DNA of 64,000 nucleotides from an uncultured Clostridia bacterium. GTDB lineage: Bacteria > Bacillota > Clostridia > Christensenellales > UBA1242. Positions 6,918 through 21,331 of this stretch are shown one piece after another. The number at the start of each line of letters is the position of its first letter. Positions within the stretch are counted from its first letter, which is position 1. The stretch is taken from positions 150-64,149 of the forward strand of contig CANRDW010000002.1 in the NCBI GenBank assembly GCA_947629505.1, written 5' to 3'. The notes beneath the pieces were generated by a model. The model was not told the DNA's origin. It ran no database searches and was given only the letters and a program-made list of their open reading frames with translations. A program made the position numbers and the translations under genes.

Positions 6918-6952
6918 GTATATTTAATTTAGGAGATGGCTATGGCAAGAAA

Positions 6953-6980: not shown

Positions 6981-6990
6981 GATTGCAGAA

Positions 6991-7221
6991 TCAAAAATGA
7001 ATTTTTTGTAAGATTCCAAGTTTTTTGAACATCTCATAGTTCTCTAGAAGAAAATATTGGGTTTTTGCTTTCTTAATTAACTTTACCATTTTTCTTCTAT
7101 ATTTTCTAGTCATCATTTGTTCGCCATGCTCTTTCACAAAATTGGAGTTGAGTAATTCTTCTAATAATTGTTTGTATTCCTCAACTTCTTCCTTGCTTAA
7201 GTCATCTCTTATAGTTTCCAA
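6991..7221 (-). CDS. Small hypothetical protein (76 aa)
   Basis: TTG start preceded by AAGGAGAG. Own terminator. Confidence 0.6.
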   Translation of the reverse strand: METIRDDLSKEEVEEYKQLLEELLNSNFVKEHGEQMMTRKYRRKMVKLIKKAKTQYFLLENYEMFKKLGILQKIHF

Positions 7222-7228
7222 CGAGTCT

Positions 7229-7351
7229 CTCCTTTTGTTAAAAAATTATTAGTAAACAGTAATCGACATACTGCCTCCTAAATTTTACTAATAAACTATT
7301 ATAGCAAATTTTGGAGTGATATTAAATAAAAAACGGAGGATTTTTATGACA
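7229..7351. repeat. Copy 1 of a ~123-bp duplicated bidirectional control region
   Basis: ~85% identical to 7790-7913. Carries the minus-strand RBS at its left edge, a conserved mini-ORF (MSITVY, 7269-7249) and a plus-strand RBS+ATG at its right edge (MTKYG stop). Confidence 0.75.
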
Positions 7352-7385
7352 AAATACGGGTAAATCTACAAATTTAATATTTTGG

Positions 7386-7413
7386 AGAAAAAAAATTGCC
7401 CCAAAGGGCAATT
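7386..7413 (-). terminator. Intrinsic terminator of the 7424-7780 gene
   Basis: Stem AATTGCCC/GGGCAATT (7394-7413) plus a T-run on the minus strand. Confidence 0.7.
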
Positions 7414-7423
7414 TGATTGACGC

Positions 7424-7780
7424 TTAGGTTTTGCGTTTACTAGACTTCGCTTTACCTTTAGCGTTCAAGCGGTTGTTGTTGACACCTATATTTTTGGTAT
7501 TGCTTACAGACACGTTTGATTTAACCTGCACGTTTTTGCTAGAACAGTCAACTTTGGTGCTAGAGACTTTTGAAAGTTCAAGTTTTTGGTTGTATTCAAA
7601 ATTCTTCATTCTTTGTTCTAAAGCACCTTCGCGTTTCAAGAGATTAGATAGTCTTTTAGAATCACGCTTATCTAAAAATTCATCTTCTCTCTTCTGACGG
7701 CGCAAATCAGCAATTTCTTCTTTAACCTGATTTAATCTGCCAGCATCGCGTTCACTTCTGAAATTTTGCAAACGATTCAC
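7424..7780 (-). CDS. Small basic coiled-coil protein (118 aa)
   Basis: GTG start with an AAGGAG RBS. Charged helical sequence and a Lys-rich C-terminus. Confidence 0.6.
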   Translation of the reverse strand: MNRLQNFRSERDAGRLNQVKEEIADLRRQKREDEFLDKRDSKRLSNLLKREGALEQRMKNFEYNQKLELSKVSSTKVDCSSKNVQVKSNVSVSNTKNIGVNNNRLNAKGKAKSSKRKT

Positions 7781-7789
7781 TATGTATTA

Positions 7790-7913
7790 CTCCTTTTGTA
7801 AAAATTTCTAGTAAATGGCAATCGACATACTACCTCCTAAACTTTACTAACAAACTATTATAGCAAATTTTGGAGAGTCAACAAATAAAAAATGGAGGCT
7901 TTTTATGACAAAT
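7790..7913. repeat. Copy 2 of the duplicated bidirectional control region
   Basis: See 7229-7351. Mini-ORF MSIAIY (7828-7808). Its plus-strand ATG at 7905 opens the 111-aa ORF. Confidence 0.75.
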
Positions 7914-8240
7914 CAAGAAATTTCAAACTTAATAGATGAAAAATTTGAAAAAGTGAGACAAGAACTCAAAGCGCAGATATGTCCAAAGTGGGTATTCTCA
8001 GAAGTTGAAAAGGCAATCTTGCGAAATTTAGACGAAGAATACAAATACATCGCAAGAGATGAAAATGGAGCGATTTATGTTTATAAGTCTGCTCCATATA
8101 AAAAATTTGGGGATAACAATAATTTCTATTGGAATTGCAAAGAAGACAGTGATTTTGCATATTTTGATTTTTTTCCAAATCACTTTCAGCAAATCACAGG
8201 GGATGACGAAGAGCCTTGTGAATTTAGAAAATACTTGTAG
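7905..8240 (+). CDS. Hypothetical protein (111 aa), first rightward gene
   Basis: RBS GGAGG then ATG. Confidence 0.7.
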   Translation: MTNQEISNLIDEKFEKVRQELKAQICPKWVFSEVEKAILRNLDEEYKYIARDENGAIYVYKSAPYKKFGDNNNFYWNCKEDSDFAYFDFFPNHFQQITGDDEEPCEFRKYL

Positions 8241-8248
8241 GAGGAAAT

Positions 8249-8428
8249 ATGGAAGCTTGGCTGATTAAAAGAATTGACGGGAAATATTACGATGTAGTGT
8301 ATGGAAGTTGGAGTAAACATTGGGCATATTGGTATATTCATAAAGAAGATGCCATGTTTGATATTACCAATTGTAAATTAAATGACTGCAAACTTGTTAA
8401 AGTGCGAATTGAAGAAGTGGAGGAATAA
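8249..8428 (+). CDS. Hypothetical protein (59 aa), not in the ORF track
   Basis: RBS AGGAGG then ATG at 8249. Translates MEAWLIKRIDGKYYDVVYGSWSKHWAYWYIHKEDAMFDITNCKLNDCKLVKVRIEEVEE. Stop at 8426-8428. Tightly packed between its neighbours. Confidence 0.6.
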   Translation: MEAWLIKRIDGKYYDVVYGSWSKHWAYWYIHKEDAMFDITNCKLNDCKLVKVRIEEVEE

Positions 8429-8429
8429 A

Positions 8430-8711
8430 ATGAGAATCATCAACGAAAAATTTTTCGATCAATTATCAATCAATCCTGGCAACACAGATTTGCCTTACAT
8501 AGACATTTTTAAAGACAAAGTTTGCGGGCTTGATAGTTCTATGATGCATCTTGGCAATTACATCTGGTTTTTAAATTGTTCTTTCAAAGGCTATAAAATT
8601 GCCAAAAAATTGAGGCCAATCTTGTCTTTTGACGACTTTATGCGTGAGCGTTGGCTTGAGGATATCTCAACTAAATCAAATATGGAATTTTCCCCTGGCG
8701 GTGAAGAATGA
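8430..8711 (+). CDS. Hypothetical protein (93 aa)
   Basis: RBS GGAGGAA then ATG at 8430 (MRIINEKFF...). The track start at 8382 overlaps the previous gene. Confidence 0.65.
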   Translation: MRIINEKFFDQLSINPGNTDLPYIDIFKDKVCGLDSSMMHLGNYIWFLNCSFKGYKIAKKLRPILSFDDFMRERWLEDISTKSNMEFSPGGEE

Positions 8712-8893
8712 GTGCATCATTCTTGTATCGCGAGGGCTTTTTTATATCCTGGCCCACAAAACACGCCGGAAACTGCAGAATTTTTGTTAAAAGCAAAAGT
8801 GAAGCAGACACCTTATACGCCACATTAAAATCGAAAAATCCGAATGTAGAAAAATACGCTGTAAGTTTTGGAAATATGAAAAAACTTGCTTAA
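8708..8893 (+). CDS. Hypothetical protein (61 aa)
   Basis: ATGA start/stop overlap with the upstream gene. Confidence 0.5.
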   Translation: MSASFLYREGFFISWPTKHAGNCRIFVKSKSEADTLYATLKSKNPNVEKYAVSFGNMKKLA

Positions 8894-8904
8894 GAGGTGA
8901 ACAC

Positions 8905-9510
8905 ATGAAAGAAGAAAGAATTAACTTCTGGGCAAATCTGCCATATCCTGTGCGCGCATCAACAAACATTTCAAGCGATGAGAAACTGTTGTATGCTGAA
9001 GTTGTTGCACGATTAACTCCGGCCGGGTGCTGCAAAACATCAAATGAAACATTTGCACGGTTTTTTAACACTGACATAAGGACTATCTCTCGCAGAGTGA
9101 AAAATCTAGTAACATGGGGATATATGAGGATAACGCGAGATTATAAACGTCACATTCGAAAACTTTGGCCACTAGAAATTCAAATCCCGGATGTTGCAGA
9201 AGAGCCTGAGAAGTGGTCTGAAAAACAAAAGATGTTTGCAAAGGCATTTCCTGAAAGGCAAATTGACATGGCAGACATTCCGGACAGTGTGGACATGGAA
9301 CTTCTGATTCAGAAAATAAAAGAATCCAAATTCCTGTCAAAAGCAAAAAACATGAGTTTGCGATCATGCGTGTTGAAATATAAAGCCATTGTGGCTGACG
9401 GATATCATCAATTCAGTGAAGAGAAGAAAAAAAAGTCCGGCACAGAAAGAAGTTACACTGAAGAAGAGGCAAACGCTTTATTTCAAAGCGCAGATGAAGT
9501 TGAAATTTAA
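8905..9510 (+). CDS. Putative DNA-binding / replication-organiser-like protein (winged HTH N-terminus)
   Basis: RBS AGAGGTG. ETFARFFNTDIRTISRRVKNLVTWGYMRI looks like a wHTH. The functional call is weak. Confidence 0.45.
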   Translation: MKEERINFWANLPYPVRASTNISSDEKLLYAEVVARLTPAGCCKTSNETFARFFNTDIRTISRRVKNLVTWGYMRITRDYKRHIRKLWPLEIQIPDVAEEPEKWSEKQKMFAKAFPERQIDMADIPDSVDMELLIQKIKESKFLSKAKNMSLRSCVLKYKAIVADGYHQFSEEKKKKSGTERSYTEEEANALFQSADEVEI

Positions 9511-9524
9511 AAGGAGAAACGACA

Positions 9525-10721
9525 GTGCAAGAAACACACAAACTAAGTGGATGGTGGAAGTTTTTAATTGCAGTAGTGATCATTATTGGCTTGCCTTTAA
9601 ATGTTTGGCTTTGTTATTATCAAATTTTCCTAAAAGAGTCCACAATCGTAATTGACAGTTCCTTTGTTGACACCGCTGGGTATCGTGATGAGGACATCTA
9701 TTTCATGGAAGTGAATTACTATTCAAACGAAAAGAAAAACGGTGTTGAGTGCATGGAGTTTAAATTTAATTATTATGTGGATACTTCAATACCTGAGAAA
9801 AAAGAAGATGGGACTTATGATAATAAATACATGTTTTCAACAGGGGTGCAATTTCAAGACTTAAATGATTATTATGATCATTACAAAACAGGGAGCTTCT
9901 TCGGTTCTACACAAATTCATATTATCCCTAAAAATATGACTTTTTATGCCAAACCAGACGGACTTGATCAAGGATATCAAGTTTCTGATATAGATCTTGG
10001 CAACAGTTGGATTTTTGATATAGGTGGAAAACTTTGTTTAATTGAACCGATTGGCCCCGTTTATTTTACTAATTTTTTATGGGTTAAAGAGTATATTGAT
10101 TATGACATTCATTTTATGATTACGAAAACCATTATGTCTATTCAATCAATGAAAAATGGAACGACAATCACTGCGTTTAATTTCAGCGATTTTTTAAAAA
10201 TAACAAAAGTATACAATGAAGAAACCGGCAAATTTGAAGAAGAACTTGTAGACGACAATATCATAAAATACTTCACCTTTATGAATGTTTTAATTAACAA
10301 GACAGATAATGGCATGATTGAGGCTAAAAATTCAATATTCAATTCATATGATGGCGATCCTGAATGGTCTTTTAATAATGTTGGAGATAAAGTAACATAT
10401 TGGCGCGATGACACTATTTATGACATAGATTCCGATGACTTCAAATTTGTTTCCGTGGGTGATGGTTATGAGATTGAATTAAAAGATTCTTGTGCAGATT
10501 TTCTTTCTGAATTCTCAGATGTGCTCTTAAATGTTGAGATTAATCTTGACGATTTTAGTTCGATCCTCAATATTATTGGATTTACAACACAACCTTTCAA
10601 GGATTTAAATGTTAATTCAATTAAGATCACTTCATCTACACAAAAAGATTTTATTGTATATGGTTTTAACGATCTGGACATTCAAACTGAAAATGTAAAT
10701 ATTGTCCGTGGAGGTGCGTAA
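9525..10721 (+). CDS. N-terminally membrane-anchored protein (398 aa)
   Basis: RBS AAGGAG then GTG. TM WWKFLIAVVIIIGLPLNVWLCYY, then an acidic, beta-rich ectodomain. Confidence 0.75.
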   Translation: MQETHKLSGWWKFLIAVVIIIGLPLNVWLCYYQIFLKESTIVIDSSFVDTAGYRDEDIYFMEVNYYSNEKKNGVECMEFKFNYYVDTSIPEKKEDGTYDNKYMFSTGVQFQDLNDYYDHYKTGSFFGSTQIHIIPKNMTFYAKPDGLDQGYQVSDIDLGNSWIFDIGGKLCLIEPIGPVYFTNFLWVKEYIDYDIHFMITKTIMSIQSMKNGTTITAFNFSDFLKITKVYNEETGKFEEELVDDNIIKYFTFMNVLINKTDNGMIEAKNSIFNSYDGDPEWSFNNVGDKVTYWRDDTIYDIDSDDFKFVSVGDGYEIELKDSCADFLSEFSDVLLNVEINLDDFSSILNIIGFTTQPFKDLNVNSIKITSSTQKDFIVYGFNDLDIQTENVNIVRGGA

Positions 10722-11326
10722 TGGGGTTGCTTGAATGGATTTTAATTATTGTTGGCATTGTAGCGTTTGTTTTAATTTTGCTTGCCTCGATTAAATATCA
10801 AAATTATAAAGTGCTTGGCATAATCGTGTTGCTTGCTTGGTGTGGACTTTCTGTGTATAGTGGATTTACTTTGCTTAAATACGAAAACTCGCATTCAAAC
10901 CTCTTTGGCACACCGGAAGTGCATGATCCTTATGAAAATTTTAATTACTACGAATATGATCTTTCTGGGATATCCTGGTATTTCACTGAAGAAGATCCAA
11001 CACTTAGATATGAGACAGAGTATAAAACCTCAATCAAGTTTGATGGCAATAAAAACAAATATCATTTACTTGTCAACAATGCACCTTGCACAAAAACCGA
11101 ATCAACAAATGGTAGACTTAAAGGTTTTTTGAAAAAACAGTTTACCCAGATGGATGGAGAAACCAAGATTATTAACTTTGAAATCACATTCGAATTTTAT
11201 GTGTCCAGCATCAAAATTAAAATTGAAACAGATGCAACTTCAGAAGATATTGGATATGTAAACGAATATGTAGAAATTAACGGATTCAACTTGAGAATTA
11301 TCAATGCCGTTTATGGCTTGGGTTAA
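10721..11326 (+). CDS. Two-TM membrane protein (201 aa)
   Basis: RBS GGAGG with a TAATG overlap. Two N-terminal hydrophobic helices. Confidence 0.75.
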   Translation: MGLLEWILIIVGIVAFVLILLASIKYQNYKVLGIIVLLAWCGLSVYSGFTLLKYENSHSNLFGTPEVHDPYENFNYYEYDLSGISWYFTEEDPTLRYETEYKTSIKFDGNKNKYHLLVNNAPCTKTESTNGRLKGFLKKQFTQMDGETKIINFEITFEFYVSSIKIKIETDATSEDIGYVNEYVEINGFNLRIINAVYGLG

Positions 11327-11338
11327 AAGGAGAAATTT

Positions 11339-13312
11339 ATGGATTGGAAAAAAGCACTTAAAATCACAGGTATCATATTGCTGATCTTGGCTTTTGTGTT
11401 TATTGCAATCTGGGTTGCGTTTAATTGGAAAACAATTTTTTCAGGATCAAAGATTTACACTTCACAGCAAAGAGAAGAATATGGAGATCAAAGATACAAT
11501 GCAGCACTTGAACAAGCAGAGAAGTGGCGCGTGCAAGTGCAAGAATTACAAAATAAAGTTGTTGTATATGAAGAAAATCAAAACGATCTTAAAGTTCAAG
11601 TAAGCACGTTGATAAATGAAAAAGAAACACTGCAAAACCAAAAAACTACTCTAGAAGCAGAAGTGAGACAAAAAGATGAACAAATTGCTGAACTTGAGCA
11701 ATCACATACAAATGATCAACAAGAAATAAAAACCTTAAAAACCGAAAAAAACAGTTTAGAGGCTGAAATTCAACAAAAAAATGCTCAAATTTCAGAAAAA
11801 GAGCAAAAAATCACACAATTTCAAACACAAATTATAGAATTAAAGAACAGTGTGACAAGGCTCATCTCTGAACTTGAAGCATATAGAGAAAAAGACATCG
11901 GGCTTAACAAAATTGAATTTATAAATAAAGATATTGTTGAAAGAGTTGTTTATTTCAAGAAAGGAGAAACCATTCCATATGTTCCAACTCTTGAGCAAAA
12001 AGTAGACGAATGGTTTTATGGTTGGACAAAGGAAAAAGGGAGCGAAAATGTCTTTAACCTTACAACAGAGTATACTCCATCTGGAGATGAGACTTTTTAT
12101 GCAGTCACCGGGCCAACAGTTCCGGTTGCTGTTCCAGACTCTTTTTCAAAAAATTTTAATTCATACTCTGAATATGGATGGTATGGAGAGAATTTAACAC
12201 TAAATGACATTTTAAATTTTGATGAAGATATTGATTTTGACGATCCAAATTTAACTTTAACATTAGGAACAAGTTCTCGTAAAACACCAAAAATTACTTT
12301 AAATACCAAGATAAAAGATTTTGCAGATAATGTCCAAACAACTTATAATGGCGGGCTTCTTGGCGAACATGCCGATGGAGTTTATGACTATGCTTGTTCG
12401 TTTAATATTAATCTTAAATATAAAGTTAAGACTATAATGAAAGAAACATTTACAGAGTCCTATCAACGAGATCCATGGTTTACAGACGAAGATGAAAATC
12501 ATTTTTTTGATTTGGGTTTTGACTTTAAATTTAGTAAAATTTTGGGCTTTGATTACTGTATTAGAGAGTCTATTGAAGATAAAGCTGTATGGAAAAGATT
12601 TACGGGTGATTTTACTTATGTCAAAGAGGATAGTTCTGGTGGATCGCAGAGTTCGTCTCCGGTTTACAAATGCACACTTGATAATGGAGAAACTTGGAAA
12701 TTCAAACTTTGGCTACCATTTGATGGAGGCATTTCATGTAAATTATATGAAGTGAGCAATATGACAGCAAGCCGAATCATAAATTACAGAAACATCGTTT
12801 TAGAATTGGATCTTATTACAAGGAACAATGTTTATACTACAGAATGTGCCTGTGCTAAACATACAGATGAAGCTTATGAACAATATTTAAATAATACATA
12901 TGCACATTGCTTTACAGATAATGCTGCTTTATGGGTTACAAAAAAGATTGAGGATAATAGCTTTGATTATATTTTAGCAGGTAACAATAATGGAGATCGT
13001 TGCTATAAAACAATTGAAATTTTGGCAAATAATGCAACAAATTTAAAACTTGACCTTTTTGCTTTAGAGAAAGATGGAAACTATTTTGGAATTATTTATA
13101 CCGTGCAAGGTGAAGATGGTCAGGATTACTCTGCGATGTTACTTGTTTATAGGGTAAAAGATGGTTATGGTGATAGTTTTGAAAGCAAAACTTTAATTGA
13201 AGAAAAACAGTGCAGCATAACTAGGATGGACAAACAAATTACAGTAAATTCTAGTGAGGGCAGCAAAACATATACATTAAATGAAGATAGACTTACGCTA
13301 GATGCTGCCTAA
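11339..13312 (+). CDS. Membrane-anchored coiled-coil protein with a List-Bact-type repeat (657 aa)
   Basis: RBS AAGGAG. N-terminal TM, a ~150-aa heptad-rich Q/E/K segment, then EWFYGWTKEKGSENVFNLTTEYTPSGDETFYAV (Flg_new-like) and a Cys-containing C-terminal domain. Confidence 0.8.
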   Translation: MDWKKALKITGIILLILAFVFIAIWVAFNWKTIFSGSKIYTSQQREEYGDQRYNAALEQAEKWRVQVQELQNKVVVYEENQNDLKVQVSTLINEKETLQNQKTTLEAEVRQKDEQIAELEQSHTNDQQEIKTLKTEKNSLEAEIQQKNAQISEKEQKITQFQTQIIELKNSVTRLISELEAYREKDIGLNKIEFINKDIVERVVYFKKGETIPYVPTLEQKVDEWFYGWTKEKGSENVFNLTTEYTPSGDETFYAVTGPTVPVAVPDSFSKNFNSYSEYGWYGENLTLNDILNFDEDIDFDDPNLTLTLGTSSRKTPKITLNTKIKDFADNVQTTYNGGLLGEHADGVYDYACSFNINLKYKVKTIMKETFTESYQRDPWFTDEDENHFFDLGFDFKFSKILGFDYCIRESIEDKAVWKRFTGDFTYVKEDSSGGSQSSSPVYKCTLDNGETWKFKLWLPFDGGISCKLYEVSNMTASRIINYRNIVLELDLITRNNVYTTECACAKHTDEAYEQYLNNTYAHCFTDNAALWVTKKIEDNSFDYILAGNNNGDRCYKTIEILANNATNLKLDLFALEKDGNYFGIIYTVQGEDGQDYSAMLLVYRVKDGYGDSFESKTLIEEKQCSITRMDKQITVNSSEGSKTYTLNEDRLTLDAA

Positions 13313-13333
13313 AAGCAAAAAGGAGAAGAAAAA

Positions 13334-14812
13334 ATGAAAAAAACAACAAGAATTGGCATGACGGCACTTGGAATCACTGCAGCGCTTGCTGGCGGAACTG
13401 TGGCTGGAGTTTATCTGGAAAAGGAAGTTCTGCAAAGAAATGGATTGGACATGCCCTCACAAAGTCAAGATGCTGAACAACAAAAGAAGTTAGAGCAAGA
13501 ATTACGTGAGAAAATCGAAAAAGAGATGAATGCGCAGTTCGAAAAAGAGAAGCAAGATCTCGAAAATCAACATCAAACAGATCTCGAAGCAGCAAAACAA
13601 GAGGGGAAAACTGAGGCGGAGGCTGATGTAAAAACTTTAAAAGATGTAATTTCAACCGTATTTAACAGTGATACAGCAGGGGAATTCACTCTTGAAAATG
13701 GTGATTTAATCAAATATGCGCCAAAAGAAGATAAAAGTGGCATATATGTTTTAAACACAAAAACACTTGAATATAAAACAGCAAATATAGATACTTCTTG
13801 GAGTTTTAACGTTTTGAAAGCAGATATATATAACAAAAGGCAAAACAATTTCACTACTTATGATGAAAACACCATTTATTTTCAAGTTTCTACTGAGGGG
13901 TTGTTTGCCATAAAGGACAATCTTGATATTGTAAAGATGATCGATCTGCACAATCAGGCTTTTAATGCCACTTCATTGCAAAAGTATGGTGACAAATATT
14001 TCCTGTTTGGCGGATCAAACGAAACAACATCTTTATTTGAAATTGATGGCTTAACTTGTAAAAAAATAACAACTCCAGAAGAGTTGTCTGGACACTTGTC
14101 TCAAATGTGGACAGATATGAAATATTTTTCTATTGATGCCGATGATCTAATCCTATATACAAATTCATCTCAAACTTCCTGTGGTGGAATATATAGGATT
14201 AAAGATGGAAACCTAGAAATCCTTTATGGAGATGCAGAATTAGATGCGCAAAATTCTCATGCAATTTACACACTAAATGTGCAAGAAAATAGCAAGGGTG
14301 ACAAAATTGTATTGGCAAATTATGAAAACAATTCAAAAAAGCATATATGGACATGCAATCTGTCACAAGGAAAAGATAGCATACAAGATCATGAACTTGC
14401 TGAATCTGTTAGTTCTGGAATAGCCTCTCTTGCATTCTTAGATGACGACTTCACAAATATAGTTGTTGGTGGGAATGGATGGGGTGATATTAAAGTTTAC
14501 AAATTTCAAGATCAAAACTATGTAATGCAAAGCGAAATATCTTTTAGTGGCTATTACAGATTTATCAAGCAGTTTGGTCAAGATATTGTTATTGGAACTC
14601 AAGCAGGGGAAAATTATTATCTCTATGTTGTTCGTGAAGATCAAGAACAAGTTTCGTCACAACAGCTGTTGAGTGGCCATAATATTGAGACTGCAGAATG
14701 GTATAACGGATATATGCCAGATGACAGTGATTTCATTGTTACTGATTCTCAAGGCTCTAAAGAATACTACAAGTATAATCAAGATTTACATACAGTTGAA
14801 AAAATAAATTAA
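13334..14812 (+). CDS. Membrane-anchored protein, paralogue A (492 aa)
   Basis: RBS AAGGAG. The N-terminal MKKTTRIGMTALGITAALAGGTVAGVYLEKEVL is shared with the 15981 gene. Short coiled coil, then a beta-rich domain. Confidence 0.8.
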   Translation: MKKTTRIGMTALGITAALAGGTVAGVYLEKEVLQRNGLDMPSQSQDAEQQKKLEQELREKIEKEMNAQFEKEKQDLENQHQTDLEAAKQEGKTEAEADVKTLKDVISTVFNSDTAGEFTLENGDLIKYAPKEDKSGIYVLNTKTLEYKTANIDTSWSFNVLKADIYNKRQNNFTTYDENTIYFQVSTEGLFAIKDNLDIVKMIDLHNQAFNATSLQKYGDKYFLFGGSNETTSLFEIDGLTCKKITTPEELSGHLSQMWTDMKYFSIDADDLILYTNSSQTSCGGIYRIKDGNLEILYGDAELDAQNSHAIYTLNVQENSKGDKIVLANYENNSKKHIWTCNLSQGKDSIQDHELAESVSSGIASLAFLDDDFTNIVVGGNGWGDIKVYKFQDQNYVMQSEISFSGYYRFIKQFGQDIVIGTQAGENYYLYVVREDQEQVSSQQLLSGHNIETAEWYNGYMPDDSDFIVTDSQGSKEYYKYNQDLHTVEKIN

Positions 14813-15063
14813 ACTCATGGCGCTTTAGTGCGCCAATATGGAAGTGTAGCACAATGAGAAGTGCAAAAGCCCGGCCAGCGAATATGTAGGTGCAAGGCCT
14901 ACCACTTTCACCAAAGCAGAGAGAAAACATTTAATCCTCCTATCCATAAATGTTCTGGGCTCTCTGCTTACCAAAGACAAGAAGTTTGAAATCCTAAGCC
15001 AATTTTTCTTCTTGTCTTACAACTTGCAAAAGCAAGAAATTTAATTTAAAAGGAGAAAAGTCT
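14813..15063 (+). other. 250-nt highly structured non-coding spacer (at least four strong hairpins)
   Basis: Stems TGGCGC/GCGCCA, GTAGG/CCTAC, AAGCAGAGAG/CTCTCTGCTT (with inner AACATTTA/TAAATGTT) and AAGACAAGAAG/CTTCTTGTCTT. No ORF. Confidence 0.5.
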
Positions 15064-15273
15064 ATGGCAAAAGAACATAAAAAGATGAGTTGGGTTGGCA
15101 TAATTTGCTGGATCTTAGTGTTTTTAATTGTCGGTGGTGGTGCAGGTTATGGGACTTACGCGACAGTTAAATACTTTGAGGATAAAAATGCAGAACAATC
15201 CAAGGTAACTGACGAGGAAGTTGGCTCACAAGATGTTAAACTCACAGAAGATGGCGTTGTTTTGTATGTGTAA
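15064..15273 (+). CDS. Small single-TM protein (69 aa)
   Basis: RBS AAGGAG. Basic N-terminus, TM WVGIICWILVFLIVGGGAGYG, acidic C-terminus. Confidence 0.7.
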   Translation: MAKEHKKMSWVGIICWILVFLIVGGGAGYGTYATVKYFEDKNAEQSKVTDEEVGSQDVKLTEDGVVLYV

Positions 15274-15291
15274 AAAGATTGGAGATAAAAA

Positions 15292-15807
15292 ATGATAAAG
15301 AAAAATCATAGAAAGCCAACTAAAAACAGAACTAAAGCAACAAGTAAAGTTAAATCAATTAAAAAACACGAAACAAATACTAAGAAGAGATCTAAAGGTC
15401 AAGACAAGAAAATTCGTATTGGACAAACACTTGAAACAAACGATATTTATCTTCCTCATAAAAAGAACAGAGTCCCAAAATCTAAAAAAAGGCCTATTCT
15501 TGTTGTTGATAAAAATGAGTTTAACGAACTCGTTGTTGTTCCTGGCAGTAAAAAGAAAACAAACAATACAGTTCCATATAATCGATATGGTTTAAAGAAT
15601 TATAGGATTAGTATTGAAATTGAAGATAACGAGGGGAATCCTATCAAAGAGAATGAAAAATTTAGAAAAACCAAAAACTGTTCTGTTCTTCCTGAAAGTG
15701 AAACCTTAAAAATTAAAGACAACGTTATTAATCACTCTCGTTTTACAAGTGAAAATAGAAAGAAATATAATCTTTTTATTAACAGACATAAAAAAAGTAG
15801 GGATTAA
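15292..15807 (+). CDS. Extremely basic protein (171 aa)
   Basis: RBS GGAG. The first ~70 residues are almost all K/R/T/N. The RPILVVDKNEFNELVVVPGS segment is faintly PemK/SH3-like, which is not a confident call. Confidence 0.7.
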   Translation: MIKKNHRKPTKNRTKATSKVKSIKKHETNTKKRSKGQDKKIRIGQTLETNDIYLPHKKNRVPKSKKRPILVVDKNEFNELVVVPGSKKKTNNTVPYNRYGLKNYRISIEIEDNEGNPIKENEKFRKTKNCSVLPESETLKIKDNVINHSRFTSENRKKYNLFINRHKKSRD

Positions 15808-15906
15808 TCCACCCTACTCAATGCCCAGACTTTCAGGGCAGGCGCTCCCTAGCCTAAATCCTTTGGATTTACCTATGAGCCTGTTAAACAAGTTTTTATA
15901 AACTTG
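15796..15906. repeat. ~110-nt structured repeat, copy A (inverted partner at 23332-23440)
   Basis: Near-identical to the reverse complement of 23332-23440. An internal hairpin differs by compensatory changes (TGCCC...GGGCA versus GCCAAG...CTTGGC). Confidence 0.8.
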
Positions 15907-15980
15907 ATACAGACATTATATTACATCTTATTTAAAAAGTCAATACTTTTTGGCAAAAAATTTAAAAAAAAGGAGAGAAA

Positions 15981-17375
15981 ATGAAAAAATCAACAAAAAT
16001 TGGTATGACAGCTCTTGGAATCACTGCAGCGCTTGCTGGTGGAACTGTGGCCGGGGTTTATCTAGAAAAGGAAGTTCTGCATCCTCAAGTGCAACAGCAA
16101 ACAAATCAATCAGAAAGTAATGAAGATATTCTTGTTGGATATATTATATCTTCAAATGACTCTGAGATGGGACAATATATTCCTGCTAATGCAAATAAAA
16201 CATATTCTTATTTAGGAACTGATGGAGAATTAATTGACGATCCACAAATTATTGCTCAAAAAGAATGTTCTTCACTTGGTGGAAAAGGAATTTATGTTTT
16301 TAATATTAAAACAAAAACTTGTAAAAAGTTTTTTAAAGACACTTCTGTAGATGAAATCAATTTCACGTCATTGGCGAGTATCCAATATTCACCTTATTCT
16401 TCGAGAATTGTTTGTGTTGGACAAGATGTTTATTACTTTGATCCGGGCACTTTCGATTTTATTAAAACAGACATTCAGGGCGATGTAAAAAAAGTATATA
16501 ATGCGCAATATGGCAACATTCTGTTGTTGGCAGACAAAATTGCTTGTTTAGATGTTGATTCCAGGAAAACAAGCACCATGGAGTCACCTCAACTTATCAA
16601 AGAATTAGTGGATGATCAATCACTTCATTATGATGAAGAATTAGAAACATTCTACTTTACTTCTTCTCGAGCATTTGATGAATACAACAAAGGCCTGGCT
16701 GTATATAAAATCAGTCAAGATAGAACTGAGGTAAAGACAATTTTTGAGGGGACTTCAAACGATAGATATGCACAAGTCCAATCTTGCAAAGACAAACTCA
16801 TATTCCATAAATATGAAAATTCTAGTTGGCAATCACCTTGTGTAAGCGCTATCGTTTGTGATTTGGCCAAATATACATATAAAGAGATCACCTATCCAGA
16901 ACAACTTGCAAGCCAATTTAATGATTCAACTTCCTTGTTTTTGGAAGATAAGTATATGATCATGGTTGCTAACACGACAGAAGATTCAAACACACTTAAA
17001 TTTTACGCCTTTGATCTAGATGCCGGCACATATACGACAAAAGAAATCACTGACGAAAGTTTAAGTATAAGAACGGGATCTGGATGCATTCAGTTTTTGG
17101 GCTTATCTACACGCAATGACTATACACTTATTTTCCTAAGCAATTACGACTATTCTAATAGACTGTATTGGGGATATCTTGCTCACATTCAAGATGGTGA
17201 ACTAGAATTAAGTATCGTAAATGAAGATTTTAACAAAACAAAACATCAAGGCGTTGTTTACTTCGATTGGTTTAATAGCAATACCATCGAAACTAGAGAA
17301 GAGGATGGCACAACAAACAAATATCTCTTTGATGAAAAAACCTTAACCTTTACAAAAACAGTGGAGGAAGTGTAG
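15981..17375 (+). CDS. Membrane-anchored protein, paralogue B (464 aa)
   Basis: RBS AAGGAG. The first ~100 nt are ~90% identical to the 13334 gene, then the sequences diverge. Confidence 0.8.
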   Translation: MKKSTKIGMTALGITAALAGGTVAGVYLEKEVLHPQVQQQTNQSESNEDILVGYIISSNDSEMGQYIPANANKTYSYLGTDGELIDDPQIIAQKECSSLGGKGIYVFNIKTKTCKKFFKDTSVDEINFTSLASIQYSPYSSRIVCVGQDVYYFDPGTFDFIKTDIQGDVKKVYNAQYGNILLLADKIACLDVDSRKTSTMESPQLIKELVDDQSLHYDEELETFYFTSSRAFDEYNKGLAVYKISQDRTEVKTIFEGTSNDRYAQVQSCKDKLIFHKYENSSWQSPCVSAIVCDLAKYTYKEITYPEQLASQFNDSTSLFLEDKYMIMVANTTEDSNTLKFYAFDLDAGTYTTKEITDESLSIRTGSGCIQFLGLSTRNDYTLIFLSNYDYSNRLYWGYLAHIQDGELELSIVNEDFNKTKHQGVVYFDWFNSNTIETREEDGTTNKYLFDEKTLTFTKTVEEV

Positions 17376-17437
17376 GACTGTGATTTCGCTTTCGTAAGAA
17401 AGAAAATCAATAAAATTTAAAAAAAGGAGAAAAAAGT

Positions 17438-17605
17438 ATGCAAAAAGCAAAAAAAACAGCGAAAAAAGCGCTCAAAACTCAAAAAAGAGTTAAAAGTGCA
17501 TCGAAAAAACCTACTAAGGCTGCTTATGCTTCAAAAAGGACTGTAAATGGAAAAAGCACTCCAAAAAGCAAAAACCGCCGTGTAATTGTAATCAATGTTA
17601 AATAA
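17438..17605 (+). CDS. Very basic 55-aa protein, not in the ORF track
   Basis: RBS AAGGAGA then ATG at 17438. Translates MQKAKKTAKKALKTQKRVKSASKKPTKAAYASKRTVNGKSTPKSKNRRVIVINVK. The stop abuts the next gene's start. Confidence 0.6.
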   Translation: MQKAKKTAKKALKTQKRVKSASKKPTKAAYASKRTVNGKSTPKSKNRRVIVINVK

Positions 17606-18511
17606 TTGAAAGAATATTCTAAAATTGAAGATATTTTCGCAGATGGAATATTTACGCCTTATGAAACATTGGTTGTTTGGGCGAAGCGCGGCAAGGGCAA
17701 GTCCGCTTTTGCCGCCTTTCTCCAAACTGAATTTATGAAACCTGCTATGGCAAGCATTTCCTTAGACAAAGCCAAAGAAAAGTGTGAGAAATTAAAAAGA
17801 GCCGGGATTTATATTGAGCCTCCAAGAGATCATTTAGTTTTCAATGACACTTTTTGTGAAGATTACAGATATCCGGGAAGAATTGCCTATGAAATTAAAG
17901 CAACAGACATTGGCATTCCTAATAAAATTCATAGAGTAAAGCAACTCATCCCATTTTCACAAATCTTCTTAGAAGAGATTCAAGATTTATTTGACAGTCA
18001 CCTTGGTGCGCCACCAACTTTTGTCACTAAATCATTTGAACTTGGCCGACATAATGGACTTTTTATTTGTATGACTTTACAAAGGCCAATTCGTTTACAT
18101 AAAGATATCCGTGATCTTGCCACGTTTGTTGAAATTGTTCAGATGTCTGTTGTAACAAACAAGTATGGAAAGATTTTAAAGACTGTTTGGTTGTGTAATA
18201 TCATTTATGACAACGCAAACTTAGAGGCTTATCTTCAATCCAAAGACGATGCGTATGTTGATTTAAAAGTTAAGTTTGCCTTTAAAGGCAATATATTCAA
18301 CTGTTATGATCCTGAATTCTTTGCTCTTGCTTTCTATTCTGGGAATAACACTGAGGAATTAAAACTTACTAAATCACAACGTATTGATTTTACACCTGAG
18401 TCTATACAATCTTTTGAACAAAATCACTGTATTGATATTCCTGAAACTTATCGAGGGAAAATGCTAAAATCTACAAAATCGAAGAAAAAGGATGGTGATA
18501 ATGATGACTGA
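17606..18511 (+). CDS. Zot / inovirus pI-like P-loop NTPase (soluble, 301 aa)
   Basis: Walker A AKRGKGKS, Walker B IFLEEIQD, and ELGRHNGLFICMTLQRPIRLHKDIRDL matching the Zot-family RHxGxDIxLxTQ block. TTG start. No C-terminal TM seen. Confidence 0.55.
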   Translation: MKEYSKIEDIFADGIFTPYETLVVWAKRGKGKSAFAAFLQTEFMKPAMASISLDKAKEKCEKLKRAGIYIEPPRDHLVFNDTFCEDYRYPGRIAYEIKATDIGIPNKIHRVKQLIPFSQIFLEEIQDLFDSHLGAPPTFVTKSFELGRHNGLFICMTLQRPIRLHKDIRDLATFVEIVQMSVVTNKYGKILKTVWLCNIIYDNANLEAYLQSKDDAYVDLKVKFAFKGNIFNCYDPEFFALAFYSGNNTEELKLTKSQRIDFTPESIQSFEQNHCIDIPETYRGKMLKSTKSKKKDGDNDD

Positions 18512-18965
18512 TGAAGAACGCAAAGCACTTGAAGAGTATGTTCTTTCTGAAGATTATTTTAATGAGTTTAAACAACTCAGAGAAATCTCTGACATCATGC
18601 CCTCCAAAGATTTTAAAGAGTGTTTAAAATTAGTCTCTAAGGGATTACGTGAGAAATATTCATATAGATATAATATTTCCACTAAATACAACAAGAAAAC
18701 GCCATGGTGGCGCAGATGGAAAGAGAAGCGTGATGCCGCTCGTGAACGTAAGATAGAGCAGCATCTTTCTGAGGTGACGAATAAAGATGCTTCTCAAATA
18801 AATCAAAGGCTTGATTCAATTGAAGAAGCTATTAAGAATAATACTCCTTCATTGCCAACTTCAGTGACAACTGAAGTTTTACTTGGAACAAGTAAATCAA
18901 CCAAATTAATTGAAAATTCAAAAGAAACGAAATCAGACAAGGAAAGCGAAGCGCTTGCTGATTGA
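18501..18965 (+). CDS. Hypothetical charged helical protein (~154 aa)
   Basis: Overlaps the ATPase gene's end. The start could be 18492, 18501 or 18504. Confidence 0.65.
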   Translation: MMTDEERKALEEYVLSEDYFNEFKQLREISDIMPSKDFKECLKLVSKGLREKYSYRYNISTKYNKKTPWWRRWKEKRDAARERKIEQHLSEVTNKDASQINQRLDSIEEAIKNNTPSLPTSVTTEVLLGTSKSTKLIENSKETKSDKESEALAD

Positions 18966-19101
18966 GTTTTGAATTTTCAGTTGCGAAAATATGGTTAATT
19001 AAATCTTATTTTCCAAAGGTCGTATAGACCTTTGGCGGTTGCATAAATGCAACTTGGCCCAAAATTTACCAATTTTTTAAATTTTTTTTGGAGAAATTTT
19101 T

Positions 19102-19461
19102 ATGACGAAAAATGATTTTATTACTGAAAATTTAAGATTTTGCCGGATTTTAACTCAGCAAAAAATTTCTGCGGAAGATGATCGGGCTATAAAAAATTTT
19201 ATAGCACAAAATTCAGAGCATATTTTTACAGATCTTGTTGCGCATCAAATTAAAATTTCCAAGATCGATTATGTAAATGACACTATGCGTTTATGTTACC
19301 TTTTGCCACAGTGTGAATTTGGATCTCACGAGGATCTACAAATTAAGAAAGAAATTGCATCGAATTTATCTAAAATTTCTCAAATTGAAAAACAAGAGAG
19401 TGAAGTTCGGCGCAACAAAAAAGATAGAGATCTGATTTTAAAGATCACTTCATGTATGTAG
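19102..19461 (+). CDS. Hypothetical protein (119 aa)
   Basis: RBS GGAGAA then ATG. Confidence 0.65.
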   Translation: MTKNDFITENLRFCRILTQQKISAEDDRAIKNFIAQNSEHIFTDLVAHQIKISKIDYVNDTMRLCYLLPQCEFGSHEDLQIKKEIASNLSKISQIEKQESEVRRNKKDRDLILKITSCM

Positions 19462-19469
19462 GAGGGCCT

Positions 19470-20294
19470 ATGAAAACGATAAATCTAGAGAATTACAAAT
19501 TAAATGAAGATGAACACTTAGATGAAAATCATCTGCCTGTATGCAACAAATGTGGCATGAAAAGATATATTATCAATCCTTTCAATAATCAAATACAAAT
19601 TTGCTTGTGTAAATGTCAAAAAGCAAATTTTGATGAACAGCAAGCAAGATTCGAAAGCCAGCAGTTGTCCATAAAGATTGAAAAAACAAGATTTTTGAGT
19701 CTTTTAGGGAAGAGATATCAGAATGTAAACTTTGACAACAGTGAATTAGACTCACAAAACATTGAGATCTACAGCAAGGTTAAAGATTATGCAGAACATT
19801 ATGAGGAAATGTTAAATAAGGGCTTAGGATTTTACATCTATGGAAAAAACGGCGTAGGAAAAACACATCTCTTGGCTTGTTTATGCAATTATTTGATAGA
19901 ACACGCTCAGGCCTGCTGTTTTACGAATTTTTTAAACATATCTGAGAATTTGAAAGAAGCGTATATATCAAAGCAAGAAGAAAGTGGAGTGATTGAGAAG
20001 TATTCCCGTGTCAACTTCCTCATTATAGATGATTTAGGAAAGGAAAGTTTTAAAAAGATAAAAAGTGACACAGAGAACTTGTGGCTTGAAGAGAAAATCT
20101 TTGAAATTTTAAACAATCGCTACAACAACATGCTTCCTACAATATTTTCTAGCAATTACTCTCTGATCGAACTAAGCACTGTTTTTGGATTTGATAAAGG
20201 AATTGTTGACAGAATTTATGAATTTTCGAGCAGTATTTTTGAAATGAAAGGCAAAAATCGAAGATATTCCGTTTACAAACTAGAAAATCAATAA
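19470..20294 (+). CDS. DnaC/IstB-like AAA+ helicase-loader protein with an N-terminal Cys cluster
   Basis: RBS AGGAGGG then ATG at 19470. Walker A GKNGVGKTHL, Walker B LIIDDLGKE. N-terminal CNKCG...CLCKC. Confidence 0.8.
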   Translation: MKTINLENYKLNEDEHLDENHLPVCNKCGMKRYIINPFNNQIQICLCKCQKANFDEQQARFESQQLSIKIEKTRFLSLLGKRYQNVNFDNSELDSQNIEIYSKVKDYAEHYEEMLNKGLGFYIYGKNGVGKTHLLACLCNYLIEHAQACCFTNFLNISENLKEAYISKQEESGVIEKYSRVNFLIIDDLGKESFKKIKSDTENLWLEEKIFEILNNRYNNMLPTIFSSNYSLIELSTVFGFDKGIVDRIYEFSSSIFEMKGKNRRYSVYKLENQ

Positions 20295-20325
20295 TATAAA
20301 GTTTAACGCTACTAAGGAGGGCCTT

Positions 20326-20520
20326 ATGGAAAAGACACTTAAAGAAAAAATAGAAAAAATAATGGAATGGCATGATTGGGCACCATGGCAATTTGCAAAA
20401 TGGCTTGGTGTTTCTAAATCTCAAGTCACACGGTGGCGTGCTGGTCAACAGATTCCACGTGGTGAAACGTATATGAAAATTTGCAAGGAATACGAAGATA
20501 AATTTTCAGATGGAGGCTAA
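20326..20520 (+). CDS. Small HTH protein (Cro/XRE-like, 64 aa)
   Basis: RBS AAGGAGGG. QFAKWLGVSKSQVTRWRAGQQIP. Confidence 0.65.
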   Translation: MEKTLKEKIEKIMEWHDWAPWQFAKWLGVSKSQVTRWRAGQQIPRGETYMKICKEYEDKFSDGG

Positions 20521-20522
20521 AT

Positions 20523-20777
20523 ATGGAAAAGGGGTTGAGTGTATATTCACAAGTTGATCGAGAGCAATTCTTTTCAATTTCAACAATAGATCCAGAGCAG
20601 ATGAAAAAGCATGGATTAAATATGTCTATTACTCAGTTGAAAGAATTAGCGCGAAATCATCCGTGGGCGAAAGAAATCCGCACAGGGAGTCCCACAAATG
20701 AGAAAAGACAGTGTTGGACAAAGATTTACAGATATGACGACTTCAAAAACTTTAATTATAAAAATGTAGGAGGTTAA
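20523..20777 (+). CDS. Hypothetical protein (84 aa), possibly excisionase-like
   Basis: RBS GGAGG. MSITQLKELARNH...IYRYDDFKNF resembles MerR-type Xis only weakly. Confidence 0.5.
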   Translation: MEKGLSVYSQVDREQFFSISTIDPEQMKKHGLNMSITQLKELARNHPWAKEIRTGSPTNEKRQCWTKIYRYDDFKNFNYKNVGG

Positions 20778-20778
20778 T

Positions 20779-21003
20779 ATGGATATTTTGGCTCTTATAC
20801 TTTGGTTAATGATAATTTTCTCAGGGCTGCTTGTAATTGCAAATATAGTCATTTTGTTTAGAAGTTATTTTAAAGACAGAGATGTCTGTGACTTTTCCCA
20901 ACAAATAGATTATATGCGGAGACAGATTGCAAGTTTGCAGGCTGAAGTTGACGCTTTAAAATTAAAAATTCGAAAGAAAAAAGGAGATGATTCTGATGCT
21001 TAA
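20779..21003 (+). CDS. Small single-TM protein with a basic coiled C-terminus (74 aa)
   Basis: RBS AGGAGG. TM ILALILWLMIIFSGLLVIANIVILF. Confidence 0.65.
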   Translation: MDILALILWLMIIFSGLLVIANIVILFRSYFKDRDVCDFSQQIDYMRRQIASLQAEVDALKLKIRKKKGDDSDA

Positions 21004-21331
21004 ATTCTTTAAAAACATTTTAAAATTTGCTCTTGACGATATTGGATCGTTAATTTATTCAATTATTGCTGCTGTAGTAAGCGGATTTTTATTTCCACTA
21101 TTTGTTCATCTTGTAAAAACAGAGGGATCTATCGCCATTATTGCAGCCATATTTGCCGGGATATTTGCTGTCAGTTTTATAATTTCAAGCGCAACTTGTG
21201 CTCTGGTTGTCCTTGTTAAAGGTTGCTTTAAGGACAAGAAGTGGAAGAAAGTTGTATATATAACACTTTCTGCATTAACAGTGGTTGCAGATATATTAAT
21301 TGTCGCAATTTCATTCGCAATGGTGGTGTAA
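20987..21331 (+). CDS. Multi-TM small membrane protein (114 aa)
   Basis: RBS AAGGAG. Three or four hydrophobic helices. Confidence 0.65.
   Translation: MILMLKFFKNILKFALDDIGSLIYSIIAAVVSGFLFPLFVHLVKTEGSIAIIAAIFAGIFAVSFIISSATCALVVLVKGCFKDKKWKKVVYITLSALTVVADILIVAISFAMVV

Follow-up and report, generated by a model that had tools for sequence, protein, structure and literature searches.

A tail-less prophage-like element with a Zot/pI-superfamily ATPase in an uncultured Clostridia bacterium, probably related to filamentous phages

The 64,000-nucleotide stretch of DNA analyzed here (the window; contig CANRDW010000002.1 of assembly GCA_947629505.1, from an uncultured Clostridia bacterium) carries at positions 3636 to 23331 an intact prophage-like element that was put into a tRNA-Val gene by its own tyrosine integrase. 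The element is probably a temperate, self-assembling, non-lytic, tail-less virus related to filamentous phages (Tubulavirales-like), with either single-stranded or double-stranded DNA as its genome. We infer a relationship to inoviruses because the element is bounded by attachment (att) sites and encodes an ATPase of the Zot/pI superfamily, because relatives of that ATPase stand beside rolling-circle replication (RCR) initiators (Reps), because the gene block is syntenic across a family of elements and a close relative shows head-to-tail junctions, and because no rival machinery was found. These data are best read as a lineage of family rank that has not been described before and has a structural module of its own, whose members, judged by their genes, would build particles from these proteins and release them without lysis.

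The limits of the element are set by a 50-nt direct repeat, equal at 49 of 50 positions, with a repeat-to-repeat spacing of 19,646 bp; the left copy is the 3' part of tRNA-Val(tac) (3606 to 3681). An earlier reading of the letters and open reading frames (ORFs) alone, hereafter the sequence-only reading, had proposed an integrative element of 19.7 kb with att sites. Both the size and the att sites, which lie at tRNA-Val, were borne out, and every ORF that it had listed was found in its place on the plus strand. A minus-strand integrase and an Xre/CI-like repressor oppose a long plus-strand operon (~7.9 to 23.2 kb), from which the repressor gene diverges. The flanking genes (Spo0A at 1063 to 1863, with a PP-loop ATPase and Mfd further right) identify the host as a Clostridia-type Firmicute.

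Scans of the element ORFs (3.7 to 23.4 kb) with Pfam, PHROGs, and NCBIfam recovered no terminase, portal, capsid, tail, tape measure, or endolysin gene and no relaxase, VirB4/VirD4, or coupling protein, and the Pfam and PHROGs scans recovered no holin family either. The absence of tailed-phage and conjugation genes that had been noticed from the letters therefore held in profile searches, in which none of the Caudoviricetes structural genes (terminase, portal, major capsid protein) turned up. Whole-element DNA had no match among GenBank phages.

The 301-amino-acid (aa) ATPase can be placed firmly in the Zot/pI assembly-ATPase superfamily on the strength of family profiles and structure. The P-loop core of this family is marked by Walker A and Walker B motifs and by an (H)RH-x-G-x-D/F-hydrophobic-x-x-x-Q block. 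The window protein has a Walker A motif GKGKS (residues 29 to 33) and a Walker B motif IFLEE (residues 120 to 124). As a single sequence it scored 18.8 bits against Pfam Zot, under the 20.3-bit cutoff, and its 47 close homologue clusters, all of ~300 aa, include none that is named or annotated. The narrow family profile found nothing in the PDB and was non-significant against both M13 pI and Orf9 of Propionibacterium phage B5 (in which the Walker A motif sits in Orf8, not Orf9); the broadened profile alone worked. An exhaustive profile search returned 279 representative proteins at an E value of <=1e-3, and among the matches listed, most were 240 to 310 aa long and aligned along most of their length. 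In a broad alignment of 45 proteins, which are 19 to 31% identical to the window protein, 38 matched Pfam Zot (best, 1e-10). The profile of this broad set matched the Zot N-domain 2r2a of Neisseria (E = 9.5e-12) and, by hhalign, M13 pI (90% probability, E = 1.8e-6). The GRHNGLFICMTLQRP block of the ATPase (given as GRHNGLFICMTLQ in the sequence-only reading) pairs with HRHQGIDIFVLTQGP (HRHQGIDIFVLTQ) of 2r2a.

Structure comparison points the same way. An AlphaFold2 (AF2) model of the ATPase built on the homologue alignment (pLDDT 88) had 2r2a as its top Foldseek neighbor in the PDB (E = 1.3e-7, target TM-score 0.59) and the genome-packaging ATPase B204 of STIV2 as the second. In a viral structure library, the best named neighbors were several entries called "Zonular occludens toxin [Inoviridae sp.]" together with A32-like packaging ATPases. 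Profile and Foldseek searches thus uphold the Zot/pI-like ATPase, with its Walker motifs and conserved block, that had been proposed from the letters, and the comparison with pI came out positive, at the level of the broadened family, both against M13 pI and through Pfam Zot. A PHROG "terminase large subunit" match was weak (1.2e-4) and covered the P-loop region only, family scans detected no DNA-binding domain in the ATPase, and a tblastn search of 72,556 plasmids found no homologue.

The ATPase is soluble. Transmembrane (TM) segments of the ATPases were judged by the longest uncharged run, with M13 pI as the positive control; the Kyte-Doolittle threshold used elsewhere in this work misses the M13 pI segment. 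This run is 9 aa in the window ATPase and at most 15 aa in 89 family members, compared with 18 aa in M13 pI, and Orf8 of phage B5 likewise has no TM segment by this measure. A TM-bearing pI was a criterion for genuine pI in Roux et al. 2019 (PMC6813254). Circular, Firmicutes-targeted "Inoviridae" genomes have been reported to carry a stand-alone Zot domain (PMC8530359), and the missing TM segment in our family agrees with that report.

Relatives of the ATPase connect the element to viruses. Its only GenBank phage match is bajarodino virus 12 (PQ006185; 24% identity, E = 9e-11), a circular 9.8-kb genome from rodent feces that is filed under Inovirus and has an integrase, a repressor, and a TM-less 266-aa Zot; the N terminus of its 541-aa membrane protein resembles, by eye and with no alignment, that of a protein of the family member in IMG/VR. 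One distant ATPase relative adjoins an HUH Viral_Rep and an integrase, another adjoins a REP_ORF2-G2P rolling-circle initiator and an rve integrase, and a third adjoins a Lin1244_N/DnaD-type protein, with Flg_new surface proteins encoded in that element too. One ATPase family is thus combined with interchangeable replication modules, as has been noted for inoviruses too (Roux et al., PMC6813254).

A close relative also provides evidence of mobility. It was assembled in two samples with a toxin-attP-integrase junction that contains a partial tRNA and no full tRNA gene. On a 29-kb contig (L027; ENA ERZ27249446 NODE_424), 1.7 copies lie head to tail, 100% identical, with a period of 17,265 bp, and the relative L002 has an attP-type head-to-tail junction with a partial tRNA like that of L027; in a third sample, a close relative is present in single integrated form. 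The head-to-tail junctions indicate a circular form or a tandem array. Among the candidates named in the sequence-only reading (a divergent Gram-positive filamentous or pleomorphic temperate virus, a satellite, or a new kind of integrative element), the divergent Gram-positive, non-tailed temperate virus fits best, on the basis of these attP-type junctions and of the ATPase relatives in Rep-bearing or Inoviridae-filed elements.

Multiple copies were also seen in other settings. In another lineage, two copies (L022 and L023) lie 16.6 kb apart on one contig (CARJLX010000007.1) of a metagenome-assembled genome (MAG). An identical 289-aa ATPase (P0006) occurs in two chromosomal contexts within one sample (L157 and L158; ENA ERZ28614243), and the cargo at the right end differs between these two (a DUF4325 set versus SocA-Fic).

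For the family survey, one genome per GTDB species was scanned, and the ORFs of 15 elements were clustered. The ATPase was found at 16 loci, each in a MAG of uncultured Clostridia, Eubacteriales, or Firmicutes, and the names of several of these MAGs suggest gut samples, among them rabbit and mouse. Synteny over a common core of ~11 to 14 kb extends to at least 15 elements, which come without exception from uncultured gut Clostridia and mostly measure 11 to 14 kb, and the extents that could be judged among the relatives are ~11 to 17 kb. The shared order begins with the integrase and one or more repressors on the minus strand, an HTH_36 initiator-like gene (~200 to 257 aa), a small single-TM gene, and the gene for the 398-like protein; it continues with a two-TM 201-like protein, an N-anchored coiled-coil protein, one to five basic proteins, and the ATPase, and it closes with a 157-like protein, a small helix-turn-helix (HTH) protein, and an 84-like protein. 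The window copy has the full set of these core genes in intact form. Across at least 16 GTDB species, the ATPase and membrane module keep 40 to 78% protein identity; the closest relative, with an ATPase 78% identical to that of the window, has neither the DnaC-like loader nor the DUF3800/170-aa pair.

Within this compact family, the window element is therefore an enlarged copy, with a loader, a PDC-M04 pair, a toxin-antitoxin (TA) pair, and two extra surface-protein paralogues added. The DnaC-like loader is absent from relatives L001 to L003, and no other family member examined showed it, which makes it cargo or a lineage-specific addition. The separation of initiator and loader, which the sequence-only reading had taken for an unusual design, merely reflects this acquisition, since the relatives have no loader to separate. 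That reading was right that a size of 19.7 kb is atypical for inoviruses, and the size is atypical inside the element's own family as well. The PDC-M04 pair lies between the integrase and the repressor and can be counted as cargo because the closest relative keeps only a 53-residue DUF3800 remnant of it, and the SocA-toxin pair is common to three lineages only (the window element, L001, and L005).

Replication in the family appears to be of the theta type. The initiator-like protein of the window had PHROG matches to families of replication initiation and DnaD-like proteins (best, 3.7e-9), no HUH motif was seen in it by eye, and its gene is present in 13 of the 15 elements. Rolling-circle initiators (HUH, G2P, or Rep_trans) were found neither in the window nor in the precomputed Pfam listings of the relatives.

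The membrane proteins of the block would form the structural module. A strong TM segment at the N terminus is present once in each of the 398- and 657-aa proteins and twice in the 201-aa protein; the 69-aa protein has one TM segment, while the 492- and 464-aa proteins have in common a milder, Ala/Gly-rich N-terminal segment of 22 aa (IGMTALGITAALAGGTVAGVYL) that falls below the Kyte-Doolittle threshold. Of five N-terminal membrane anchors claimed from the letters, those of the 398-, 201-, and 657-aa proteins thus stand, and those of the 492- and 464-aa proteins are only signal- or anchor-like; the claims of a 69-aa single-TM protein and of two extremely basic proteins (171 aa, pI 10.3; 55 aa, pI 12.0) proved correct. 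The AF2 model of the 398-aa protein, which among the large proteins is the best conserved (pLDDT 76), consists of a TM helix followed by a beta-rich ectodomain and has no neighbor among PDB structures (best E = 0.27), which argues that no HK97 or jelly-roll fold is hidden in this protein; it also had no Pfam, PHROG, or NCBIfam match and no match in GenBank phages. For the 657-aa protein, family matches were of the coiled-coil type only, plus a weak Flg_new match. It is 38% identical to a 445-aa protein of L001 over 390 aligned residues, and a 113-residue stretch of it is 62% identical to a truncated copy in L002. The 657-, 492-, and 464-aa proteins matched nothing beyond coiled-coil noise among PDB sequences, and the 492-aa protein had no Pfam or PDB match.

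The 492- and 464-aa paralogues are lineage-specific and diverge fast, keeping 36% identity where neighboring genes keep 75 to 83%. They are probably variable surface or host-range proteins, the latter role being suggested by this faster divergence. A 118-nt direct repeat, 89% identical between its copies (13317 to 13434 and 15964 to 16081), spans the ribosome-binding site and codons 1 to 34 of both genes. The two genes thus have one anchor cassette joined to two unrelated ectodomains.

The 69-aa protein is a candidate for the major coat protein or for a structural protein of the membrane. In all 13 elements in which the structural region was captured, there are small single-TM proteins built much like it, and they share with the 69-aa protein a coat-like size, one TM segment, and basic and acidic ends, with a predicted topology that is the reverse of that of pVIII. 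The stop codon of the 55-aa gene abuts the start codon of the ATPase gene. Of the 14 other elements, 11 have a K/S/T-rich protein of 48 to 83 aa (pI 10.7 to 11.8) encoded upstream of the ATPase, in 6 of them immediately before it, and most of these basic proteins close with a hydrophobic strand (RRVIVINVK in the window; KRKVKAITLYYDL, HGVIVITLR, and RQTIIIIRP in relatives). Counterparts of the 55-aa protein were noted in L001, L005, L012, L014, L015, L017, L018, L020, L024, and L025. Protein J of phage phiX174 is a basic DNA-packaging protein with a hydrophobic tether, and the 55-aa-type proteins recall it in design, not in sequence.

Directly upstream of the 69-aa gene lies a GC-richer region of 251 nt (14813 to 15063) that folds much better than shuffled sequence. 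It has no Rfam family. The region is ~80% identical to L001 positions 4683 to 4943 although the upstream gene differs in L001; all 49 predicted pairs are kept between these two sequences, the only ones compared, 4 of them by compensatory change, and the plus strand is indicated by G-U pairs. Possible roles of the region are that of a leader RNA for the abundant small protein and that of a set of packaging or origin hairpins on the packaged strand. In the search for further copies, a 17-mer metagenome scan gave chance matches only, and a 20-mer viral scan gave one spurious match.

We propose the following mechanism for such a virus. A CI-like repressor would keep the long one-strand operon silent; upon induction or derepression, the element would excise to a circle and replicate from a site bound by the winged-helix, DnaD-like initiator, helped in the window copy by the acquired DnaC-like loader. 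The DNA would leave through an assembly site at the cytoplasmic membrane, where the soluble Zot/pI-family ATPase, docked to the 201-like two-TM protein, the 157-like protein, or both, would be the energy source. The small single-TM protein would serve as the bulk structural subunit, with its basic end toward the cytoplasm and DNA and its acidic end outward, and the very basic small proteins would neutralize and guide the DNA. The large acidic proteins with N-terminal anchors would make up a wall-spanning assembly and adsorption apparatus, with the 398-, 201-, and 657-aa proteins as its conserved part and the 492- and 464-aa proteins as its variable part. Thin extruded particles are favored over vesicle-sized buds because there is no endolysin and the host is presumably walled.

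Several observations weigh against a virus related to filamentous phages. The one or two TM segments that tether Ff pI and CTX Zot to the membrane are lacking in the window ATPase and in the family members. No HUH, G2P, or Rep_trans protein was seen in the 15 elements, whose initiator is theta-type, and this leaves them without the classical way of producing single-stranded DNA (ssDNA) for packaging. The many basic proteins, taken together with the missing rolling-circle Rep, speak against a classical ssDNA inovirus and fit a double-stranded DNA (dsDNA) particle such as has been proposed for IME1 of Dehalococcoides. Large anchored proteins (three to five per element) and strongly basic ones (two to five) are not features of classical inoviruses, and ten small TM proteins of the family had no match among the known coat families of Pfam. 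The 19.6 kb of the window element exceeds the 5 to 15 kb usually quoted for inoviruses, and the element has five genes of at least 398 aa in place of the short genes of inoviruses, an excess that is partly cargo. When profiles of 14 family protein groups were compared with the Rep-bearing relatives (L004 and L032 to L035), only the basic group c16 matched, and this group is not present in the window element. Finally, IMG/VR held a single contig with the ATPase. The element should not be filed as a classical inovirus, as the rolling-circle Rep, the TM-bearing pI, and the genome of <=15 kb all fail. The order gVIII-gIII-gVI-gI that the letters had seemed to recall is only loosely matched: the small gene before the ATPase encodes a basic, non-hydrophobic protein unlike gVI, and the small TM gene comes before the 398-like gene in most relatives.

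It is possible, although we consider it rather unlikely, that the family is instead a Gram-positive lineage of non-tailed dsDNA viruses with no icosahedral capsid, in which protamine- or J-like proteins condense the DNA within a membrane-assembled filament or envelope (an enveloped pleomorphic particle or a dsDNA filament) and the Zot/A32-like ATPase is the packaging or budding motor; it would then be a Gram-positive counterpart of IME1 or of the plasmaviruses. The theta-type initiator, the lack of a visible RCR Rep in the family, and the DnaC-like loader of the window copy suit such a virus, but among the ATPase relatives whose replication genes can be recognized, the closest have RCR Reps of the kind typical of ssDNA filamentous phages. 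Similarly, the two to five proteins with a pI of ~10 or more that adjoin the ATPase (in most elements including one of 48 to 83 aa and pI 10.7 to 12) could be the condensing proteins, but small basic DNA-binding proteins serve ssDNA packaging too, as protein J does in phiX174. The ATPase is soluble and its second-best structural matches are the dsDNA packaging ATPases STIV2 B204 and A32-like proteins, and the large structural candidates are all membrane-anchored, with no soluble capsid candidate among them; yet vesicle-sized budding through a wall is hard to picture in a host that has Spo0A and is presumably walled, and no sequence similarity to plasmavirus L2 was found. A precedent exists in IME1, an element of 21 to 28 kb with a pI-like ATPase and TM proteins that is abundant in viromes, whose likeness to the present family is architectural only (bioRxiv 10.64898/2026.09.15.751708). 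If this reading is true, the lineage would add a second, independent case to that proposed for IME1 of Dehalococcoides, in a virion type otherwise known mainly from archaea.

That the element is not viral, and transfers DNA by cell contact in the manner of an AICE (with the ATPase as the translocase and the surface proteins as adhesins) or remodels the cell surface, we regard as very improbable. Integration into a tRNA gene, a size of 11 to 20 kb, and the failure to find a capsid homologue would all agree with it, as would an FtsK/HerA-related ATPase next to several membrane or surface proteins, one of them with a weak Listeria-Bacteroides (Flg_new) repeat match. TraB-type translocases, however, carry both a TM segment and a DNA-binding domain, whereas the present ATPase has no TM segment, showed no DNA-binding domain in family scans, and is only ~300 aa long. 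No relaxase, VirB4, or type IV coupling protein accompanies it, the characterized Zot/pI members all act in virion assembly, relatives of the ATPase occur in circular genomes of 5 to 10 kb deposited as viruses, and an integrase and a repressor accompany the block in every case, in a compact arrangement like that of phages. Least probable of all is a satellite that needs helper-phage particles or a decayed remnant without particles, which the lack of a recognizable capsid gene and the cargo-rich window copy (defense pair, TA pair) might suggest, but the family core genes are all intact, conservation of the module at 40 to 78% identity in at least 16 GTDB species implies selection on autonomous function, no tailed-prophage genes were seen in the scanned parts of the 64-kb window, and the authors of IME1 reason likewise against helper dependence (bioRxiv 10.64898/2026.09.15.751708).

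A virus related to filamentous phages thus remains our preferred interpretation, and its nearest known counterparts are the inovirus-like prophages of Firmicutes with a stand-alone Zot, namely the Clade-1 "Ino" genomes (PMC8530359), those of Enterocloster and Hungatella (PMC10061712), bajarodino virus 12, and phage B5. Shared with them are a TM-less Zot/pI ATPase of ~270 to 310 aa, a tyrosine integrase, a CI-like repressor, an arrangement mostly on one strand, small single-TM proteins, the lack of lysis and tail genes, TA cargo, and Clostridia hosts. Unlike them, the present family has a winged-helix, DnaD-like initiator and no HUH/G2P Rep, three to five large N-anchored proteins with no detectable homologues there, and several protamine-like basic proteins, and it has no match to known coat families. 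The window element, at 19.6 kb, is also larger than most of these genomes (5.5 to 10 kb); inovirus prophages of 6.5 to 16 kb have been reported in Enterocloster and Hungatella (PMC10061712).

The architecture also resembles that of IME1 from Dehalococcoides, which has a tyrosine recombinase, a lambda-like repressor, no tailed-phage hallmarks, and a central module of a pI-like ATPase with TM and signal-peptide proteins, and which also occurs as circular episomes; it has been proposed to be a non-lytic budding or filamentous virus and is, according to its authors, so far restricted to Chloroflexota (bioRxiv 10.64898/2026.09.15.751708). IME1 differs in phylum, in having its TM genes downstream of the ATPase, and in its SSV1 VP1-like proteins, and it is documented by virome abundance and electron microscopy. 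With Ff/M13, the element has in common an ATPase core homologous to pI, a small TM coat-like gene and large anchored proteins upstream of it, and a structured non-coding region; the TM segment and periplasmic domain of pI, the gII HUH-type Rep, the gV ssDNA-binding protein, and the gIV secretin of M13 (6.4 kb) were not detected. Plasmavirus L2 (~12 kb, circular dsDNA) is likewise temperate, with an integrase, several basic proteins, large envelope proteins, and no capsid gene, but its host has no cell wall. A link to it was rejected, as BLASTP of all L2 ORFs and the ATPase family profile gave nothing significant, and the plasmavirus-like option of the sequence-only reading thus has no sequence link to L2. 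STIV2 B204 and the A32-like packaging ATPases (FtsK-HerA group) are also soluble P-loop ATPases of ~200 to 300 aa, but their matches are weaker than those to Zot (E of ~1e-4 versus 1e-7), and the viruses that carry them have jelly-roll capsid proteins, whereas the 398-aa model has no PDB neighbor and the large proteins here are membrane-anchored, unlike known capsids.

The features of the element are collected in the table below.

Features of the element in window coordinates, with the supporting match or property of each
Feature	Position	Strand	Match or property
attL, 50-nt repeat copy	3636-3685	+	3' end of tRNA-Val(tac)
Tyrosine integrase, 385 aa	3750-4907	-	Pfam Phage_integrase 3.5e-12; phrog_1 2.2e-30
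Candidate defense pair, cargo	5217-6603	-	PADLOC PDC-M04
170-aa protein, PDC-M04B	5217-5729	-	PADLOC 2.1e-23
DUF3800 protein, PDC-M04A	5704-6603	-	PADLOC 1.1e-77
HTH_3 (Xre/CI-like) repressor	6434-6787	-	Pfam HTH_3 5e-14; position kept across the family
118-aa basic protein, regulatory region	7424-7780	-	92% identity in relative L002
Small early genes, 111/59/109/61 aa	7905-8893	+	Unnamed PHROG matches only
Initiator-like winged-helix protein, 201 aa, core group c5	8905-9510	+	Pfam HTH_36 1.9e-6
Core membrane protein c6, 398 aa	9525-10721	+	N-terminal TM helix, acidic beta-rich ectodomain; 13/15 elements
Core membrane protein c3, 201 aa	10721-11326	+	Two N-terminal TM segments, beta-rich domain; relatives up to 768 aa
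N-anchored coiled-coil protein, 657 aa	11339-13312	+	C-terminal region variable; weak Flg_new 6e-3
Anchored or secreted protein, 492 aa	13334-14812	+	36% identity to L001 483-aa protein
Conserved structured non-coding region	14813-15063	+	Fold z-score -4.97
Single-TM protein, 69 aa	15064-15273	+	Basic N terminus, acidic C terminus
Basic protein, 171 aa, group c8	15292-15807	+	pI 10.3; weak PemK-like match only
464-aa paralogue of the 492-aa protein	15981-17375	+	Same anchor, other ectodomain
K/S/T-rich protein, 55 aa	17438-17605	+	pI 12.0; ends RRVIVINVK
Soluble Zot/pI-superfamily P-loop ATPase, 301 aa	17606-18511	+	No TM segment
Core helical protein c1, 157 aa	18492-18965	+	After the ATPase in 15/15 elements
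Conserved protein, 119 aa, group c2	19102-19461	+	Conservation among relatives
DnaC/IstB-like helicase loader, 280 aa, accessory	19452-20294	+	Pfam IstB_IS21 2.1e-10; phrog_50 1e-51
Late small genes: 64-aa HTH, 84-aa core c4, 74-aa TM, 114-aa multi-TM, 168-aa coiled-coil	20326-21806	+	
SocA/Panacea antitoxin-like gene and YoeB/ParE-family toxin, cargo	22301-23150	+	Pfam 1.4e-18 and 2.9e-12
attR, second 50-nt repeat copy	23282-23331	+	

At the left end, the integrase is 86% identical to that of relative L002, the 118-aa basic protein had no match in protein-family scans, and the early 111-, 109-, and 61-aa proteins are kept in the L001 lineage. Between the repressor and the first rightward genes lies a 113-nt direct repeat, 87% identical between its copies (7241 to 7353 and 7800 to 7912), and a terminator-like hairpin (AAATTGCCC..GGGCAATTT) is present twice (6955 to 6985 and 7389 to 7419); both repeats may be duplicated operator or terminator units. 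A promoter and terminator scan found promoter-like sites to be no commoner than in shuffled sequence.

Two genes of the host flanks are of the surface type or may be so. Just outside attL, positions 1974 to 3536 on the plus strand encode an orphan surface-type protein of 520 aa with an N-terminal TM segment and no Pfam match. On the other side, a single plus-strand ORF of 6,684 aa (39732 to 59786) may encode a giant surface protein; scanned in two pieces, it had no Pfam match at E < 1e-5.

Cryptic inovirus-like prophages in gut Clostridia have, as a general idea, been published before; new here is an undescribed lineage with theta-type replication, protamine-like proteins, and structural proteins without known relatives. 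Phages of Gram-positive gut bacteria that have no tail and do not lyse their hosts have received almost no study, and they escape the standard tools for virus discovery. In databases, the lineage is represented by the one IMG/VR contig, by a distant ATPase match only in GenBank phages, and by no named proteins; its structural proteins have no known homologues, and the one that was modeled (398 aa) has no known fold. The window element can serve as a reference, being a complete copy with defined limits, and it provides a conserved gene set with which the rest of the family can be found. Members of the family bring defense and toxin-antitoxin cargo into gut Clostridia. Overall, the Zot-type assembly ATPase travels with rolling-circle and theta-type replication modules alike, and the testable question is raised of whether some "inovirus-like" elements package dsDNA, for which this lineage is a good test case.

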